48,055 bases of DNA from Bacteroidales bacterium (lineage in GTDB: Bacteria > Bacteroidota > Bacteroidia > Bacteroidales > JACABE01). The position numbers were made by a program, and so were the translations under genes. Below are positions 31,096-38,325 of this stretch, piece by piece. The first letter of the stretch is position 1, and every line of letters starts with the position of its first letter. The notes below the pieces were generated by a model. That model saw only the letters and a list, made by a program, of their open reading frames with translations, had not been told where the DNA came from and did not search any database. The stretch covers positions 50,363 to 98,417 of the forward strand of contig JAHEYQ010000007.1 of assembly GCA_023251515.1 (NCBI GenBank), written 5' to 3'.

Positions 31096-31422
31096 TTAAG
31101 CACTTTTTCGTTCATAAACCAGTTGTTTATCTCTGTTGATTATTTGAAGGAAAACCGGATTTCTGACGGCTTGTTTTTCTACAATATCAATCTTTCTTTT
31201 TAGCAAGGTTTCCATATTTTCTTTGAAATCCATATAATTATCGAAATAATGATATAAATCTACACCGTTAAACTGCAACAAAATATCGATATCGCTGCTT
31301 TCGTTGAATTTTTCGGTTAAAACCGACCCGAAAACATACAACTCATTTACTTTATATTTAATACATAAAGCAATTATTTCGTTTTTATGTTGTTCTATCA
31401 GATTCATATTGCAAATATACAA
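31096..31422 (-). CDS. MNT-type minimal nucleotidyltransferase (pol-beta superfamily; antitoxin-like)
   Basis: LYVFGSVLTEKFNESSDIDILL is the GS-x9-DxD nucleotidyltransferase motif. ~100 aa. The real start may be the internal MNLIEQH. Confidence 0.7.
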   Translation of the reverse strand: MYICNMNLIEQHKNEIIALCIKYKVNELYVFGSVLTEKFNESSDIDILLQFNGVDLYHYFDNYMDFKENMETLLKRKIDIVEKQAVRNPVFLQIINRDKQLVYERKSA

Positions 31423-31526: not shown

Positions 31527-31763
31527 TTATTTTGAAAGAGCAGCAGAATTATTAAATAAATTGAAGTTTGAAATTGTTTCTAAATCAATATTATCATCAA
31601 AGAAATTGAGAATATCAAGTATGCTTTTAAAAACCCAGAACTTTATCCCATCAAGATTATAAACATATAAAACCTTTTCTAATAAATTGTTTTTTAATAA
31701 AACGGTCTCAATTGTTCTTGATGGGTGTAAATAAGATACATCAATTGCTTTTATTGTGTTCAT
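31527..31763 (-). CDS. Small hypothetical protein (uncertain)
   Basis: 78-aa ORF between the NTase gene and the REC gene, with no motif. Could be non-coding. Confidence 0.25.
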   Translation of the reverse strand: MNTIKAIDVSYLHPSRTIETVLLKNNLLEKVLYVYNLDGIKFWVFKSILDILNFFDDNIDLETISNFNLFNNSAALSK

Positions 31764-31948: not shown

Positions 31949-32878
31949 CTATGCAGGGATTAACAAATTCTTATTTATCGAATCTAATAAAGCACCATAA
32001 AGTTTCAATGCTTTTCTGATTTCACTACAATATTCATCATTGAGCTCTATTTCAGTTGATTTATATACAAAAATCTTCTTGCCATCTTTCATGATAGGAG
32101 TTCCATGAGCAAGGATGTTTCTCGGCTTTGATATACAATTCTTATATGAATTCTTGAATCCATCTTGTTTATGAATTGAGAAAGAATCTGGTAAAATGGA
32201 ATCAAGTATAAATTGAGTTGCATATATTTTTCTTTCTGTGTCAAATAACATATTTTCCTTTAATAACTTTTCTGTATCTTTTTTAGTAGAATACTTTTCG
32301 CATTTTTCTTTTTTTTCAGAAGAGAACTTTGTTGCTTCTTCAAACAAATGATCAGTCAAAGCCTCTTTAAAATCAAGTCTATTCTCTAATACAGTTTTTA
32401 CAATCTGATGCATTTTTTTATCAAGATCACTTGTCTCTGCCAAAATAAGCCCACGCATATTATTTATATCTTGAATTTTTTTGATCGTTGTATGAATAAT
32501 TTTTTCAACCTTCTTTACAAATGAATTACCATCTCTGCTTGAAAAATAGACACCCTCTAGTTCTAAATCTTTTACTTTCTCTAATACCTTACTTACACCC
32601 TCTGAAGAATAAAAGATGATATTAGTAAAAACTTCAAAACTCCGAATTTTTTCAATGAGTTTATCCCCTGTTGGTGACTTCTCCAAATTAAGATCCATGA
32701 GAATTAAATCATACTCAGAAAAATTAATATTTTCAATATTATCCCCATTTTTCTTAAGCAGTGGCAAAGTCATGATAAATCCAAGTTTATCCTCAATTAC
32801 TTCTTTTATGTTATCAATAATTGATTCATACCAATCTTGATCATCTTCAAACCAAAGAATGTTGTAAGCTAGATTCAT
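31949..32878 (-). CDS. Receiver (REC) domain protein with C-terminal HEPN-like domain (Rx4H motif), last gene of the MTase operon
   Basis: N-terminus ILWFEDD...YDLILMDLNL...IIFYSS follows the CheY-like acidic pocket / phospho-Asp / Thr-Ser pattern. C-terminal helical region contains PRNILAHG (R-x4-H). 4-nt overlap with the upstream gene. Confidence 0.6.
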   Translation of the reverse strand: MNLAYNILWFEDDQDWYESIIDNIKEVIEDKLGFIMTLPLLKKNGDNIENINFSEYDLILMDLNLEKSPTGDKLIEKIRSFEVFTNIIFYSSEGVSKVLEKVKDLELEGVYFSSRDGNSFVKKVEKIIHTTIKKIQDINNMRGLILAETSDLDKKMHQIVKTVLENRLDFKEALTDHLFEEATKFSSEKKEKCEKYSTKKDTEKLLKENMLFDTERKIYATQFILDSILPDSFSIHKQDGFKNSYKNCISKPRNILAHGTPIMKDGKKIFVYKSTEIELNDEYCSEIRKALKLYGALLDSINKNLLIPA

Positions 32879-35172
32879 TTTTTCAATTGGATATTTAGTT
32901 CAAAACCTTTTTTATTTTGAGAATTCACAGTAATTAATCCTTTCAGTTCTTTTAAAACAGTATTTGCAACATTATATAACCCTAATCCTGAACCAGATGT
33001 TGTTGTAACTCCTTTTTCGAACACTGAATTTGGAGCATCTAATTTATTGGACAAACCTTTTCCATCATCCCTAATATTTAAACCTAATGTATTAATATCA
33101 ACTTTGAAAATATCTATAAAAATATTGCTTGCATTAGCTTTAATTGAATTGTCTATAATGTTGTCAAACATAAGACTTACTTCTAATGGCTTAAATGGAA
33201 TCACAAAATCAGAATCACTTTTATTCTTAAAATGAACTTTTATATCTGGATAAAATTCTCTTAAAACATTCTCTGAATACTGATCAATAAAAGAAATGAA
33301 ATCAGTATCACGCAACTCCTGACCTGAAAGATTAAAATTTGCTTTAGTTGCGAATCTTGATATTGACAAGATTTTATTATTAGCACGAGAAACTGCCTCA
33401 ACAAATTTTTTCAATTTTTCCTCGTCTACTGTTTTGTTATCTATTTCTTTTGCAATCCTATTGAGCCAATTATTTACAGTACTTGCATGAACTCCAATAT
33501 CATGGTGATATCTAACAATTCTATTTATATCTTGATTATCTACTGATTGTAGAAATAATACTTGTTTTACTTTCTGATCTAATTTTTCTTCAACTACTTT
33601 TTTTTCGGCTCCTATATTTTCATTTTCTCTTTCAGCTTCAATTTTAGCTTCAATTAGTTCTTTAACTTGTTTTTCAGCAGCCTTAGCCTGTTTTACAAGA
33701 TCTGGATTTTGAGTTTCTTGAGCAATTCGATTAAAGTTCTTTACTATTTGAGAGACACTTTTTTCTTGTTTTGCTTCATATATTCTTAAAAAATCCTTAT
33801 CGTAACCAATATCAATTACTTCTTTTGCTTTTGTTAATGTGGAAATAATTTCTAATATCTCTCCTCTTACATCTTCTGGGTTTATGCTTGGACTTATTTC
33901 TCCTGTATCTTTATCCTTTCTCTCATCTCCCCATTTAATAATATCTACCGTATATTTTTCTAGACGTTTAAGAGCTTTATCGTAAAACAAATCTACAAGT
34001 TCATAGTAAGAATCATTTTTAATAAAGCCACCATCTCTACTGGTTGTTTCTTTTAGATTAGATTGTTCTCCTGAAATCTCTATTCTTCCAATTAAGTCTC
34101 TAGTTCCTAAAAATCGATTATATCCTTGTTGCTTTCTTCTATCAATCAGTAATGTGTCATCACCCTCTTCTCCAAAAGGATAAATACGGAAACCATTTTT
34201 ATAAATAAAAACGGAGCCATAATCAACCGACCGAATATCCATTTGCTTTTTAAAATTGATCTTTGCTTCAAAATTTAAAACAAAAAGATTGATTTTAATG
34301 TCTGACAATAAAGGATAATGATTCCGCTCTTTAATCCAATAAATTTCTTTGCCTCTATCAGTTAAGGTTGTTTTTACGACTCCACCGTTTTCTATTATCT
34401 CGACTTTTATTTGAGTTGTTTTTAAACCAAGAGTTTCAAAAACAAAATTTTTTATTTTTCCGTTTAGTCTATTTCGTTCAATTTTTTCATTTTTATCCTG
34501 AACAAGCTCATCGAAAGCAATAATTTCTATATCAAAGTTTTCAATGTCATTCTCTTGAATTGGGTTAATCAATTTTTCTAGTGAAAATTTCAACCGTTTT
34601 ATACGCCCTCTATCCCATACATCTCTCAATCCGGTTATTTCGAGAATAGTTCCTTTTTTGAAATCTTTATAACTTGTTGAATTTAAGATAGAATGAAACA
34701 CTTTAACATCGACAAATTCTTTATTAGAATCCTCTTCAAAATCTGTCCAATCAACAATAAGATTTTCTATCTTTGAATTAGGCTCATCTTTCAATGTAAT
34801 CAAATTCAATTGATCTCCTAGCCTATCACAAGAAAATCTCCCAACTCCTTTTGCTCCAGCAAAAATTCGTTTAGTTTTAATTTTATCACGATAATCTTTA
34901 TCTTCTGTTCCATCATTCTTAGCTGAATATGCAACAAATAACCATTTGTTTTTTAGATCATCAAAGCTCATTCCTCTTCCATCATCCCAAATTGTTATCT
35001 TTGCTGTTTCAAGGTTATACTGATTCTCAAAAATCACTTTTACGTGTTTAGCATTGGCATCAAATGAATTCTTTACTAGCTCAAAAACAGCAACAAACTC
35101 ATCTGTAATTAATTCCTTGCCAATAAGATTCTTTAAGGCTGAACTTATTCTAAACTGCATTTGATTCTCCAT
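32875..35172 (-). CDS. Fusion protein: N-terminal MORC-like GHKL ATPase (HATPase_c_3-type) + C-terminal histidine-kinase core (HisKA_3-like H-box + HATPase_c)
   Basis: N-terminal Bergerat motifs ELVKNSFDANA, ITIWDDGRGM and GAKGVGRFS. C-terminal RIVRYHHDIGVHASTVNNWLNRI resembles the NarX-type H-box RIARELHDSIGQ. HATPase_c boxes DNIIDNSIKAN, IRDDGKGL and GSGLGLYNV. Confidence 0.7.
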   Translation of the reverse strand: MENQMQFRISSALKNLIGKELITDEFVAVFELVKNSFDANAKHVKVIFENQYNLETAKITIWDDGRGMSFDDLKNKWLFVAYSAKNDGTEDKDYRDKIKTKRIFAGAKGVGRFSCDRLGDQLNLITLKDEPNSKIENLIVDWTDFEEDSNKEFVDVKVFHSILNSTSYKDFKKGTILEITGLRDVWDRGRIKRLKFSLEKLINPIQENDIENFDIEIIAFDELVQDKNEKIERNRLNGKIKNFVFETLGLKTTQIKVEIIENGGVVKTTLTDRGKEIYWIKERNHYPLLSDIKINLFVLNFEAKINFKKQMDIRSVDYGSVFIYKNGFRIYPFGEEGDDTLLIDRRKQQGYNRFLGTRDLIGRIEISGEQSNLKETTSRDGGFIKNDSYYELVDLFYDKALKRLEKYTVDIIKWGDERKDKDTGEISPSINPEDVRGEILEIISTLTKAKEVIDIGYDKDFLRIYEAKQEKSVSQIVKNFNRIAQETQNPDLVKQAKAAEKQVKELIEAKIEAERENENIGAEKKVVEEKLDQKVKQVLFLQSVDNQDINRIVRYHHDIGVHASTVNNWLNRIAKEIDNKTVDEEKLKKFVEAVSRANNKILSISRFATKANFNLSGQELRDTDFISFIDQYSENVLREFYPDIKVHFKNKSDSDFVIPFKPLEVSLMFDNIIDNSIKANASNIFIDIFKVDINTLGLNIRDDGKGLSNKLDAPNSVFEKGVTTTSGSGLGLYNVANTVLKELKGLITVNSQNKKGFELNIQLKK

Positions 35173-36378
35173 CTATAATATAATTTCTTTTAAAGCCAAA
35201 CCCGCAAGTTCTGCAAACAAAGGTGGAATTGCATTTCCGATTTGAGTATATCGAGGTACTTCAACTTTACGCATTTGTCCACCTGTAGTATATTTCTCTT
35301 TTATTTCATACCAATCAGGAAATGTTTGTATTCTAGCATATTCCCGAACAGTTAATATTCTGGGTTCTGAATAATGAATATAATCATCAGGATGAGTTGT
35401 CAGAGTTGGTGAAATTTGTTTTGAATCCAATAAAGTTATCCCTCTTTTTTTTATTTTCCAGTGTTCACGTTCCTTGTTTGCAATTCTTTTACCTTTAATT
35501 GGATAATACTCTATTATTGATGAGAAAACGTTCACTGTTTCTCCGTTATGATTCGCAAAGCTATGACTGTCAGGAATTGTGTTTTTCTGAGTATAGTCTC
35601 CACGCATTAGAGTTTGAAAATTAGAGTTTGATTTACCATAAAATCCAGATTTGAAACTTTTTCGGTCAGGTGTTTTAACAGTGCCATTAGAACTGAGTAA
35701 ATCTGAAATAGCATCTCCAATTGTTGTAGTGTCTTTTATCCCTTTTTCTTCCAAGTAAACTTGTTTTAGCTTATCAATTGTTGGTTCAAAATCTGATGCT
35801 TTTCCATTCAAAGATCCTACTAAAATAAAGCGTTTCCTTCGTTGAGGTACGCCATATTTTGAAAAATCTATAATATGAGGTTTTACACAATACCCTAATT
35901 CATTTAGTTTATCAATAACTATTTTTGAATATGGAACAGCATCGTTTTCTCCTTTTTTATTAAATGCATATGTAAATCCCTTCACATTCTCAAAAAGAAT
36001 CATCTTTGGACGAACTAATTCAATAAAGTTTATATATGAATAAACTAATTGATTTCGCATATCTTCTTCAACTCTTTTCCCTGCCATTGAAAATCCTTGA
36101 CAAGGCGGTCCCCCAGCCACTAAATCAACAGTACCTCTTAGTCCTCTTAAATCCTTAGCGTGATTCTTTAAAACTTCATTAATATCATGATTTTCAGGTT
36201 TTAGCCAATCAGGCCATTCAAAATGTTTTTTATTGTCTATCAAATTGAATTTCAATGTTTCAAAGGCAAAGGGACTTTTTTCTATAGCAAATAATCCTTT
36301 CCAACCTGCATTATGCAAGCCCAAAGAAAGACCGCCACAACCAGCAAAAAGATCTATATAAGAAAAATTTTGATTCAT
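35173..36378 (-). CDS. DNA (cytosine-5)-methyltransferase
   Basis: Motif I DLFAGCGG, motif IV GGPPCQGFS, motif VI ENV, motif X QIGNAIPP. 401 aa. Stop directly abuts the start of the ATPase-kinase gene. Confidence 0.9.
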   Translation of the reverse strand: MNQNFSYIDLFAGCGGLSLGLHNAGWKGLFAIEKSPFAFETLKFNLIDNKKHFEWPDWLKPENHDINEVLKNHAKDLRGLRGTVDLVAGGPPCQGFSMAGKRVEEDMRNQLVYSYINFIELVRPKMILFENVKGFTYAFNKKGENDAVPYSKIVIDKLNELGYCVKPHIIDFSKYGVPQRRKRFILVGSLNGKASDFEPTIDKLKQVYLEEKGIKDTTTIGDAISDLLSSNGTVKTPDRKSFKSGFYGKSNSNFQTLMRGDYTQKNTIPDSHSFANHNGETVNVFSSIIEYYPIKGKRIANKEREHWKIKKRGITLLDSKQISPTLTTHPDDYIHYSEPRILTVREYARIQTFPDWYEIKEKYTTGGQMRKVEVPRYTQIGNAIPPLFAELAGLALKEIIL

Positions 36379-36547: not shown

Positions 36548-36830
36548 GGGCTGAAAACTTCCGATGGAGATATTTTAAGCTTCGCTGTCAGGGGAAAAAC
36601 TTCCGATGCCGATACTAAAAGACTCAATGTAGGGGCAAAAAGATTCCCCGTCGATATTAAAAGACCCGGCGGAGATACCAAAAGACTCTTTGCCGGAGTA
36701 TAAATACTCTCTGTCGTAGCAAAAAGACTCGGTGGAGATATAAAAAGATTCGGCACCGAGGAAAAAAGACTCTGTCGAGATATAAAAAGACTCTAGGTCG
36801 AGGTAAAAAGTATCTCCATCGGGTCTTTTG
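36548..36830. repeat. Degenerate ~40-bp-period repeat array (repeat family 1), core GGAGATAyaAAAAGACTC, at least 7 copies, one inverted
   Basis: Copies at 36566, 36609, 36650, 36671, 36734, 36775. Inverted copy AAAAAGTATCTCC near 36805. Confidence 0.65.
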
Positions 36831-36834
36831 ACAC

Positions 36835-36864
36835 CAGGGGGGGTGGGTAAACCACCCCCTGAGA
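36835..36864. other. G/C-rich hairpin CAGGGGGGGTGG-GTAAA-CCACCCCCTG separating the two repeat families
   Basis: ~10-bp GC stem with a bulge, in an otherwise AT-rich spacer. Confidence 0.5.
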
Positions 36865-37060
36865 GGTAAATAGATGCTTTGAGGGTGTAAATACCTGCTC
36901 AGAGGATATAAATAGATGCTCTAAAGGGTGTCGATAGCTGCCCGGAGGGTATAAATACATGCTCTGTAGGGGGTAAATAGATGCTCTATAGGATCTAAAT
37001 AGATGCTCTATAGGGTGTCGATAGATGCCTGGAGGATATATACAGATGCTTTAGTGGGGG
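36864..37060. repeat. Tandem ~21-22-bp direct repeats (repeat family 2), consensus TAAATAGATGCTCTATAGGGTG, ~9 head-to-tail units, no spacers
   Basis: Units start at 36866, 36887, 36908, 36930, 36951, 36973, 36995, 37017 and 37038, with progressive degeneracy. Confidence 0.7.
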
Positions 37061-37152
37061 TTGGTTAAATAAGTAAATATAAAAATGGGTATTTTTCTGA
37101 ACGTTTCCCGATTTCAGTTGTAATCATAGTATAATTCAAAAAAATAAATATC

Positions 37153-38325
37153 ATGAACAATATTAAAAAAATCAACATTCTTATATTCCTTATCGGAATT
37201 TATCTGCTGCCGCTTAATGCCCAAAAACCCGAAAAGGTGTATTCCATTGTAAAACAAATAAAATCAATCGACTGGTACCGCACTCAGGCAAAACTCTGGA
37301 AACAGGAAATTGCCAAAGATACTGCCAACGAAACCGCATGGATAAATTATTATGCAGCCAATCGAATGGCAAGAATGACAGATGCCGGATTGTGGAATAA
37401 AGAAAAAGGGGATTATTTTCTCGATTTAAAGACCATAGTGAGCAAAGCTGAAAAAGCCATTCCCGAAACCTATGAGTTTTATCATATGAATGTATGGGAT
37501 AAGGGAATTTACGACATAAAACAGGCCGATTTTATGTTCAAAGCTATGAAAATGTATCCCGACCGCATGGATATGATAAGTAATTATGTAAACTATTACG
37601 AAATAAACCGCGATAAGGAAAATATGAAGAAATATTGCAGCAAATGGTTTAGCAGCAACGAAATTTCGCCGGGAATACTGGCTTATAATTATAATGTATT
37701 AAGCACTTTAGAAGACAATGCCATTATTTTTACCAATGGCGACAACGATACCTATCCGCTCTGGATACTGCAATATGCCAAAGGTATAAAAAAGGAAGTA
37801 AGTGTTTTTAATGTAAGTTTGCTGCAGATAGATAGCTACAGAGATAAATTGTTTGCCGAAATCAGAATACCGGCTTTCGATACCGCAAAATTTATGAAAA
37901 CCTATAAAACAGAAATGGATTATCCACAGGCAATTATCCGTCACATTATCCAGAATACCGATCGGCCGGTGTATATGGCTTCAACCATGAGCAATGAATA
38001 TTACAAAGAATTTGAAAAAGACCTTTATCTTACCGGATTGGCTTTCCGCTACAGCAAATCGGATATAGACAATACGGCCTTTATCAGAAAAAATTATGAA
38101 AAAAACTTCCTTCTTGATTATATAAAGATTAATTTTACAAATGATTTGTCGGAAACGGTAGTAGCTCAGATGAATATGGGTTATCTGCCGGTATTATTCA
38201 AATTGTATGAACATTATGGATTGACAGGCGAAACCGAAAAAAGAGCAGAAGTTAAAAAACTTGCAGCAATAATTTCAGCAGCAGCAGATAAAGAAACAGA
38301 AGTAATGCCCTGGTTCGAAAAATAG
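37153..38325 (+). CDS. Secreted hypothetical protein, first gene of a putative operon with the ECF sigma/anti-sigma genes
   Basis: Signal peptide MNNIKKINILIFLIGIYLLPLNAQ. 390 aa with no recognised catalytic motif. Only 5 nt precede the sigma-factor start. Confidence 0.5.
   Translation: MNNIKKINILIFLIGIYLLPLNAQKPEKVYSIVKQIKSIDWYRTQAKLWKQEIAKDTANETAWINYYAANRMARMTDAGLWNKEKGDYFLDLKTIVSKAEKAIPETYEFYHMNVWDKGIYDIKQADFMFKAMKMYPDRMDMISNYVNYYEINRDKENMKKYCSKWFSSNEISPGILAYNYNVLSTLEDNAIIFTNGDNDTYPLWILQYAKGIKKEVSVFNVSLLQIDSYRDKLFAEIRIPAFDTAKFMKTYKTEMDYPQAIIRHIIQNTDRPVYMASTMSNEYYKEFEKDLYLTGLAFRYSKSDIDNTAFIRKNYEKNFLLDYIKINFTNDLSETVVAQMNMGYLPVLFKLYEHYGLTGETEKRAEVKKLAAIISAAADKETEVMPWFEK

Follow-up and report, generated by a model that had tools for sequence, protein, structure and literature searches.

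Cassettes that combine a DNA methylase with proteins of the two-component type were described in silico by Bellieny-Rabelo, Pretorius, and Moleleki (Genome Biol Evol 2021; PMC8011034) in 644 genomic regions. A response regulator-like (RR-like) gene was linked in 91.6% of cases to a gene for a protein with a HATPase_c_3 domain, a DHp-like region named HEF_HK, and a HATPase_c domain. A C5 methylase gene was usually located upstream, HNH_2 and Vsr genes were found nearby, and the RR-like proteins were reported to have no other known domain. The authors linked the cassettes to the paraMORCs, proposed that the pair regulates restriction-modification (R-M), and deposited the Pfam families PF19191 and PF19192. 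The GHKL paraMORCs are established partners of R-M systems (Iyer, Abhiman, and Aravind 2008; PMC2292703), and in the Shedu protein VcSduA, which has been validated as anti-phage, a GHKL domain gates a C-terminal nuclease (PMC12137116). A two-component relay is also found in Detocs, which consists of the histidine kinase DtcA, the phosphate buffer DtcB, and the response regulator DtcC, which carries the effector (PMC11728103).

Here we present the analysis of a three-gene cassette in a 48,055-nucleotide stretch of DNA from a Bacteroidales bacterium (NCBI GenBank assembly GCA_023251515.1, contig JAHEYQ010000007.1, positions 50,363 to 98,417 of the forward strand). This whole stretch is referred to as the window. 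The cassette encodes a Dcm-type C5 methyltransferase (gene 1), a GHKL ATPase that ends in a histidine kinase core (gene 2), and a receiver domain followed by a probable HEPN domain (gene 3). A preliminary description of the window had presented the operon as undescribed, and this claim did not stand because the layout of a C5 methyltransferase, a HATPase_c_3 histidine kinase, and an RR-like protein is the one reported in PMC8011034. What our analysis adds to the literature is the probable HEPN effector, a sister branch that is invisible to the Pfam models, the breadth of the cassette across phyla and archaea, and a domain-exact exchange of the kinase core and receiver.

The three open reading frames (ORFs) were located on the minus strand exactly where the preliminary description had placed them. 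Gene 1 (35173-36378, 401 amino acids) is the first gene in the cassette and was identified via PF00145. Gene 2 (32875-35172, 765 amino acids) encodes a soluble protein with a HATPase_c_3 and a HATPase_c domain, and gene 3 (31949-32878, 309 amino acids) encodes the regulator, which was identified via Response_reg and an RNILAH motif. The tight packing was also as described: the TAG stop codon of gene 1 abuts the ATG of gene 2 with zero gap, and gene 2 shares its last 4 nucleotides (nt; ATGA) with the start of gene 3. All six modules of the cassette were present with their signature residues intact.

The preliminary description had proposed that the genes form one unit, and it called for a survey of their synteny. 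We scanned one genome per species, obtained 148 relatives, and kept 80 loci. Gene order was counted in the 69 loci that had 3.7 kb or more of upstream sequence, and the position of the kinase gene was counted in 73 loci. The results confirmed a near-obligate linkage that extends over many phyla: in 68 of the 69 loci, the Dcm, kinase, and regulator genes abutted one another in this order, all on one strand, and the GHKL-kinase gene was directly upstream of the regulator gene on the same strand in 72 of 73. The sole deviating locus (L040) was on the Tenacibaculum sp. chromosome OZ251501.1, where the regulator had a mere fragment of kinase-core similarity upstream and neither a GHKL domain nor a Dcm gene. 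The kinase gene of a SUP05 locus (L068) was apparently shortened, and both of these loci may be decayed or minimal versions of the cassette. No separate Hpt gene or DtcB-like buffer gene was conserved in the cassette among the 80 loci. Thus, the earlier claim that the architecture lacks a separate Hpt protein was borne out, as no third signaling gene was conserved.

The regulator had 193 close homologues, all of about 300 amino acids. In a set of 1.84 billion representatives, a profile of its output domain matched 951 clusters. Nearly all of the top 150 matches had the same architecture of about 300 amino acids, with a receiver followed by the domain. The output domain was found almost exclusively behind a receiver of the gene 3 type.

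The cassette was detected in at least 10 bacterial phyla, among them Bacteroidota, Spirochaetota, Bacillota, Pseudomonadota, Campylobacterota, and Verrucomicrobiota, as well as Acidobacteriota, Desulfobacterota, Calditrichota, Fibrobacterota, and Patescibacteria. Archaeal loci were found in Methanosarcinales and Aenigmatarchaeota. The flanking genes were unrelated from locus to locus and integrases were common among them; in gut Bacteroidales elements the cassette was located between integrases, and integrase fragments flanked five further loci. The cassette is horizontally mobile. We found no relatives in 2.9 million viral contigs with a search that relied on short peptide patterns, and by this search the cassette does not appear to be phage-borne. 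In gut Bacteroidales, it was common: a single regulator variant was present on 110 contigs, and a single kinase variant was present on 294. Current annotation labels gene 2 as a "sensor histidine kinase" and gene 3 as a "response regulator" or "hypothetical protein."

These integrases, together with the patchy distribution over phyla and archaea, are what would be expected if the cassette were a selfish post-segregational killing module of integrative elements and not primarily an anti-phage system. In such a module, loss of the cassette would dilute the methylase and leave host DNA unmethylated, and a long-lived sensor would then fire and arrest the cell via the RNase. R-M systems are known to act in this way (see the discussion in PMC8011034), and the parts list is identical to the one that we propose below for an immune or addiction switch, with a different selective benefit. 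Sequence does not separate addiction from defense, and many R-M systems combine the two functions. The window copy fits an addiction module less well, since it is located between housekeeping genes and no integrase was found in the region examined, from 28 to 40 kb of the window. As an exclusive account, we consider selfish killing unlikely.

Several types of accessory genes recurred near the cassette. Downstream, we found further C5 methylases (12 loci), HNH_2 (8 loci), McrB-like AAA_5 (7 loci), and metallophosphatase genes (4 loci), and Vsr and HhH-GPD glycosylase genes were each present in 6 loci. The conserved core contains no DNase, with HNH_2 in just the 8 loci, and the HEPN-like domain is the only candidate effector. 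In one Bacteroidales locus (L002:8894-16891; ENA ERZ27256869), the cassette was followed by HNH_2, two C5 methylases, a gene with an MTaX1 domain, and an McrB-like AAA_5 gene. Arrangements of this type in some gut Bacteroidales are larger composite R-M or defense clusters.

A second line of evidence came from the phosphotransfer pair, that is, the kinase core of gene 2 and the receiver of gene 3. Positions 32451-33593 of the window and a segment of another Bacteroidales cassette (L008:6286-7428) formed one continuous 1143-bp tract with 76.9% nucleotide identity. The tract started 41 nt ahead of the kinase core and stopped 47 nt past the receiver, and the rest of the two operons, which comprised the sensor, the methylase, and the output domain, was at most 70% identical or unalignable. 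This pattern indicates that the two phosphotransfer domains were exchanged together by recombination, as a single module. Co-inheritance of the two domains was also apparent in 72 loci, in which divergence values, uncorrected for phylogeny, were correlated between kinase core and receiver (Spearman rho of 0.40) and not between kinase core and N-terminal ATPase (rho of -0.03). The N-terminal ATPase diverged together with the middle region of gene 2 (rho of 0.55), which did not track the kinase core. Furthermore, one kinase (P0122) was 76% identical to gene 2 overall yet carried a different type of C-terminal core. Taken together, the tract, the correlations, and this kinase suggested that the DHp-CA and REC pair behaves as an exchangeable module, as expected for a phosphotransfer pair that determines specificity.

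Gene 2 matched more than 7,600 proteins at E ≤ 1e-3, a set that included generic histidine kinases, which have the ATPase domain in common with it. Coverage was at least 95% and identity was 55-94% in all of the best 120 matches. The conservation of gene 2 was examined in an alignment of 13 homologues, which was also the source of the family profile. The preliminary description had assigned a HATPase_c_3-type GHKL ATPase to the N terminus, and our results agreed: amino acids 27-175 (34648-35094, minus strand) matched PF13589 with an E value of 3e-24 (86 bits; cutoff, 25). GHKL motifs I to IV of the MutL/MORC class were intact, and the invariant residues were E31, N35, and D38 in motif I, D63xGxG67 in motif II, G106xxGxG111 in motif III, and then G174-T175. 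The N terminus also matched the NCBIfam model of the BbrUII/HgiDII restriction enzyme (3e-19, 69 bits), far below its cutoff of 550, and this resemblance to restriction enzymes points to a possible R-M ancestry of the cassette. Weaker matches were observed with MutL and MzaB models and with PDB chains of PMS1, MutL, and MORC3.

The middle region (amino acids 176-540; 33553-34647, minus strand) is a candidate for an S5/clamp or DNA-contact module with a coiled-coil linker behind it. It contained an invariant block, N326-G327-F328-R329-I330-x-P332-x-G334-E335...R346..Q349-G350..R353..G356..R358...S378-R379..G382.

The last part of gene 2 (amino acids 541-765; 32878-33552, minus strand) is a kinase core that consists of a DHp domain with H557 and a CA domain (amino acids 664-764). 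Profile positions 533-757 aligned with residues 6-244 of the Thermotoga protein HK853 (4jas, 2c2a, and 3dge) with an E value of 4e-13, which covered nearly the whole cytoplasmic DHp and CA portion. In this alignment, the invariant H557 (codon 33502-33504) fell on the phospho-histidine of the HK853 sequence H-E-L-R-T-P. The CA domain matched PF02518 (HATPase_c; 3e-18, 66.8 bits; cutoff, 26.4), and its conserved boxes were the N box (N675), G1 (D702xGxG706), and G2 (G727xGxG731). The histidine kinase core that had been proposed at the C terminus was thus supported over its full length. The label "HisKA_3-like" was not: the Pfam DHp models HisKA, HisKA_3, and HEF_HK all failed to match gene 2, and the residue following H557 was variable among homologues (HHD, QHH, and HHQ). 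The gene 2 protein would be predicted to autophosphorylate and to transfer the phosphoryl group.

In gene 3, the receiver (amino acids 1-127; 32498-32878, minus strand) had a (beta-alpha)5 fold. A Response_reg match was found in 109 of 127 relatives at E ≤ 0.1, with a best E value of 5e-12. The predicted phospho-acceptor, Asp62 (codon 32693-32695), aligned with D57 of CheY, and an acidic pair (E11/D12) followed beta-1. The conservation set consisted of 127 regulators drawn from 50%-identity clusters, in which only D62, Y90, R142, G143, and H258 were invariant; E148, R253, N254, and S91, the candidate for the Thr/Ser expected after beta-4, were at least 90% conserved. These positions comprise the phospho-acceptor and the HEPN motif, and we read the near-invariance of R253, N254, and H258 as the pattern of a catalytic site.

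The output domain (amino acids 128-309; 31952-32497, minus strand) is helical and probably an RNase domain of the HEPN superfamily. The signature of HEPN active sites is an R-x4-6-H sequence that closes core helix 3 and has a polar amino acid next to the Arg (PMC3710099). The corresponding gene 3 sequence, R253-N-I-L-A-H258 (R-x4-H; 32105-32122, minus strand), closes the penultimate core helix, and its Arg is likewise followed by a polar residue. A model of the output domain only (the C-terminal 181 residues) had a pLDDT of 89. In this model, the motif ended helix 240-258 and was followed by a loop, an insert that formed a three-stranded beta-sheet, and the last helix (281-305). The best structural matches of the domain were HEPN proteins. 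A Foldseek search of the PDB with the model yielded no significant match. When the sequence profile of the domain was compared to all PDB chains, the one match was a chance match to a viral capsid protein (E value of 0.86).

The preliminary description had called for a HEPN-clan profile match, and none was obtained above threshold with the Pfam models: gene 3 of the window lacked even a sub-threshold match, and the matches of its relatives were all sub-threshold. Specifically, HEPN_MAE_28990 matched 5 of 35 relatives (best, 7.7e-4 and 20 bits; cutoff, 26.8), HEPN_Swt1 matched 8 of 127, HEPN_RiboL-PSP matched 4 of 127, and HepT-like and Abi_2 matched one each. HEPN-clan families were nonetheless the commonest class of non-receiver match among the relatives. 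The position of D62, the location of the R253-H258 motif, and the sub-threshold matches together upheld the earlier description of gene 3 as a receiver with a probable HEPN domain, and we are fairly confident that the output domain is HEPN. Its predicted activity would be that of a metal-independent RNase. One relative of 435 amino acids (P0314) had a rare extended architecture, in which the receiver and HEPN-like domain were followed by C-terminal leucine-rich repeats (LRR_8, 1e-11).

The evidence for HEPN is moderate, and this leaves some room for the interpretation that was published for the sister family (PMC8011034), namely, that the two-component pair tunes R-M. Under that interpretation, gene 2 would respond to a cytoplasmic cue, such as the nucleoside triphosphate level, and a non-catalytic output domain would control the methylase or a nearby nuclease via protein contacts. 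The HNH_2, McrB-like AAA_5, and extra C5 methylase genes found downstream in a minority of loci are the kind of target that it calls for. However, most cassettes have no nuclease to control, and the window has no HNH_2 gene. No DNA-binding domain was found in the gene 3 regulator, the triplet remains intact while its flanks vary by locus, and near-invariance of R253, N254, and H258 over the 127 members fits a catalytic site better than an interaction surface. We therefore judge a purely regulatory role to be quite improbable.

Gene 1 was confirmed to be a complete Dcm-type C5 methyltransferase. It matched PF00145 (5e-61, 207 bits; cutoff, 22), TIGR00675 (5e-49, 168 bits; cutoff, 100.65), and the PADLOC type II methyltransferase model (6e-83), and catalytic motifs I, IV, VI, VIII, and X were all present (FAGCGG, GPPCQGFS, FENVKG, PQRRKR, and GNAIPP). 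The median identity to the Dcm proteins of 72 related cassettes was 56%, which was unusually high across phyla. When 64 Dcm proteins of the related loci were aligned, the target-recognition region (about amino acids 200-320) was still alignable, with per-block identities of 0.26-0.59. These values hint that the cassettes may share a similar methylation target, unlike typical R-M systems, which diversify. Furthermore, the methylase was predicted to be active in vivo because Vsr and HhH-GPD genes recur adjacent to the cassette, as repair of deaminated 5-methylcytosine (5mC) would require.

The same Vsr and HhH-GPD genes, and the weak matches of the gene 2 N terminus to MutL models, are compatible with a 5mC-linked DNA repair or chromatin module. 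In that case, the MutL-like ATPase, Dcm, Vsr, and the glycosylases would act on T:G mismatches or topology, and the kinase and regulator would merely report DNA damage. A Vsr or glycosylase gene was present in just about 12 of about 70 loci, however, and repair has no need for an R-x4-H effector domain. In addition, the sporadic, mobile distribution is atypical of core repair functions, and methylase-adjacent GHKL proteins have been assigned to R-M or defense contexts (PMC12137116 and PMC2292703). A repair module is thus a very improbable explanation.

The reading that we prefer, and to which we give slightly better than an even chance, is that the cassette is a self-contained, mobile switch for immunity or addiction that resembles an R-M system and whose "restriction" arm consists of a two-component phosphorelay leading to an RNase. 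In the proposed mechanism, Dcm would 5-methylate host DNA at its target motif and thereby provide a self mark. The GHKL ATPase and the middle region of gene 2 would act as an ATP-driven clamp or sensor of unmodified DNA or a related invasion cue, and the cue could come from incoming DNA or from host DNA that is left unmethylated post-segregationally. Engagement of the sensor would activate the kinase core, which would autophosphorylate at His557, and the phosphoryl group would be transferred to Asp62 of the gene 3 receiver. The phosphorylated receiver would promote dimerization or release of the HEPN domain and formation of a composite R-x4-H active site, and RNA cleavage would then stop the growth of a cell that is infected or has lost the cassette. 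The phosphotransfer, the RNase activity, and an anti-phage or addiction phenotype are predictions from the conserved domains and residues, as is the nature of the cue.

Several observations weigh against this mechanism. That the ATPase or the middle region reads DNA methylation is something that we infer, and the 365 residues of the middle region had no match in Pfam, NCBIfam, or the PDB sequences. The gene 3 receiver scored 29.2 bits with Pfam Response_reg, about 1 bit short of the cutoff of 30.2. The canonical receiver Lys after beta-5 was not evident in gene 3 (amino acids 109-115, GVYFSSR); R115, which is located two residues further on, was invariant in 35 close relatives and not in the wider set, and the phosphorylation-coupled switch may be atypical. 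The PADLOC models, which probably include those for Detocs, did not match genes 2 and 3 at E ≤ 1. The window locus is outside any recognizable defense island, and we found no experimental study of any cassette member in the literature.

A more specific form of our preferred reading is that the ATPase of the MutL/MORC type detects DNA that lacks the 5mC mark made by the cassette itself and signals through the His-Asp relay to the HEPN RNase, so that the cassette would be an R-M system without a DNase arm and the kinase core and receiver would serve as an insulation module. We hold this form tentatively, at somewhat less than an even chance. If true, it would be the first two-component pathway that is triggered by DNA methylation state, and it would constitute an epigenetically gated abortive-infection or addiction switch. 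Insulation through an exchangeable kinase core and receiver would also let several cassettes coexist in a cell without cross-talk. More generally, if the mechanism holds, epigenetic self-marking, GHKL/MORC ATPases, and two-component signaling are joined in one compact operon, in which the coupling of DNA state to a downstream signal by MORC-type ATPases becomes testable. ATPases of this type also act in the eukaryotic silencing of methylated DNA. The commonness of the cassette in human-gut Bacteroidales means that it could shape the traffic of phages and mobile elements in the gut.

The surroundings of the window cassette were examined as well. The cassette is flanked by sucAB on one side and an ECF sigma factor locus on the other, with only an MNT gene close by, and the "defense island" of the preliminary description was therefore overstated. 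The GC content of the cassette (0.26-0.32) was indeed lower than that of sucAB (0.38-0.41), as had been noted. As a sign of foreign origin this is weak, since the mean of the whole window is about 0.32 and the cassette is typical of it. The solitary MNT nucleotidyltransferase (31096-31422, minus strand) matched Polbeta (1e-15) and the PADLOC candidate PDC-S09 (5e-27), and its match to the MntA-like model (47.5 bits) was below the cutoff of 60. No adjoining ORF for a HepT/HEPN partner was found, in agreement with the earlier view of this gene as an orphan. It is preceded by an ORF of 78 amino acids (31527-31763, minus strand) with no family match. We considered whether MNT might be the partner of the gene 3 HEPN domain, as in control of the MntA/HepT type, and rejected this idea because all 80 related loci lacked an MNT homologue. 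Homologues of the 78-amino-acid ORF were likewise absent from the 80 loci, and both genes were placed outside the cassette on this basis.

The repeat array that had been noted beyond gene 1 proved to be two arrays of degenerate direct repeats. The first (36554-36821) contains about 12 AAAAGACTCnnnGnnGAGATAT-like units of 21 nt, and the second (36860-37061) contains about 9 TAAATAGATGCTCTnnAGGGTG-like units of 21-22 nt. They are separated at about 36838-36860 by GGGGGGTGGGTAAACCACCCCC, an inverted repeat rich in G and C. Both arrays are intergenic, between the start of Dcm (36378) and a plus-strand ORF at 37153. Because unique spacers were absent, the region was not considered CRISPR-like, and an Rfam search of the cassette and the repeat region found nothing credible. 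The arrays could be an iteron or regulator-binding array 5' of the cassette or the remnant of an insertion boundary. A promoter and terminator scan showed no enrichment relative to shuffled sequences, with a consensus that is unsuited to Bacteroidota.

How does the cassette compare to known systems? Like the HEPN effectors HepT/MntA, AbiF/AbiD, RloC/PrrC, and Csm6/Cas13, the gene 3 output domain has an R-[polar]-x3-H motif and, in the model, an all-helical core with an insert. It differs in that no HEPN model of Pfam matches it above threshold, a beta-sheet insert follows the motif, and the domain is fused to a receiver. The MAE_28990 HEPN family was reported in DNA methylase operons (PMC3710099, Table 1), and the 2013 HEPN survey included paraMORC-HEPN (Ymh) fusions and no receiver-HEPN architecture.

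With the MORC and paraMORC proteins, gene 2 shares a GHKL N terminus of the MutL/MORC class, intact ATP motifs, and proximity to cytosine methylases, Vsr, and HNH genes. The S5 domain defines this group, and amino acids 176-540 are a candidate for S5 in gene 2, with no match at the sequence level. In contrast to the GHKL-nuclease fusions (paraMORC3/Shedu VcSduA and BbrUII/HgiDII), gene 2 ends in a histidine kinase core, and a second protein, the predicted phosphoryl acceptor, carries the effector. The paraMORC1 proteins were described with a conserved C-terminal extension and HNH neighbors, and they may be the same family as gene 2.

The closest relatives are the cassettes of the 2021 class. 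In both, a C5 methylase is followed by a HATPase_c_3/DHp-like His/HATPase_c protein and then a receiver-like protein, and HNH_2, Vsr, and more R-M genes are accessory neighbors. By the Pfam models and the text of PMC8011034, the window cassette is a sister branch of that class. Neither PF19191 nor PF19192 matched the window proteins (E ≤ 1) or more than 180 relatives (E ≤ 0.01-1). A Pantoea dispersa plasmid served as the positive control: next to Dcm, its 989-amino-acid kinase-like protein matched PF19191 (26.9 bits) and its 629-amino-acid regulator matched PF19192 (70 bits), compared to 765 and 309 amino acids for the window proteins. The window receiver is also nearer to the canonical Response_reg than the receiver of the 2021 class.

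The output domains differ as well. The domain in the window regulator is HEPN-like, whereas the Pantoea and Campylobacter regulators share another, unannotated C-terminal domain (G-x-I...T-P-x-C-D), which is probably an alternative effector. The motif reads GDIVKK..FFIILTPSCDIV in the Pantoea dispersa plasmid regulator (L088:7963-9852) and GHIFRL..WWVCATPACDLQ in the regulator of Campylobacter jejuni conjugative plasmids (L089:3580-4602; 43 records). In the Campylobacter version, dcm is downstream on the opposite strand. We rejected the idea that the window family and these regulators have a common output domain (hhalign probability below 1%). The probable HEPN effector was overlooked in the 2021 description, and PF19191 and PF19192 are blind to the window branch.

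Scans of the window genes with the PADLOC and NCBIfam models of known and candidate defense systems matched the methylase and MNT only. A DefensePredictor figure legend includes an unvalidated prediction of a system that combines HATPase and REC domains, and its identity with the window cassette is uncertain. In outline, the cassette resembles Detocs, where phage defense runs through a two-component relay and the kinase turns on a receiver that is fused to a toxic effector. Unlike Detocs, the window cassette has a GHKL ATPase sensor, an obligate methylase partner, no DtcB-like buffer, and a HEPN-like effector. The DtcC effector is of the nucleoside-phosphorylase type. If the proposed mechanism holds, the cassette would represent a second family of phosphorelay immunity, unrelated to Detocs.

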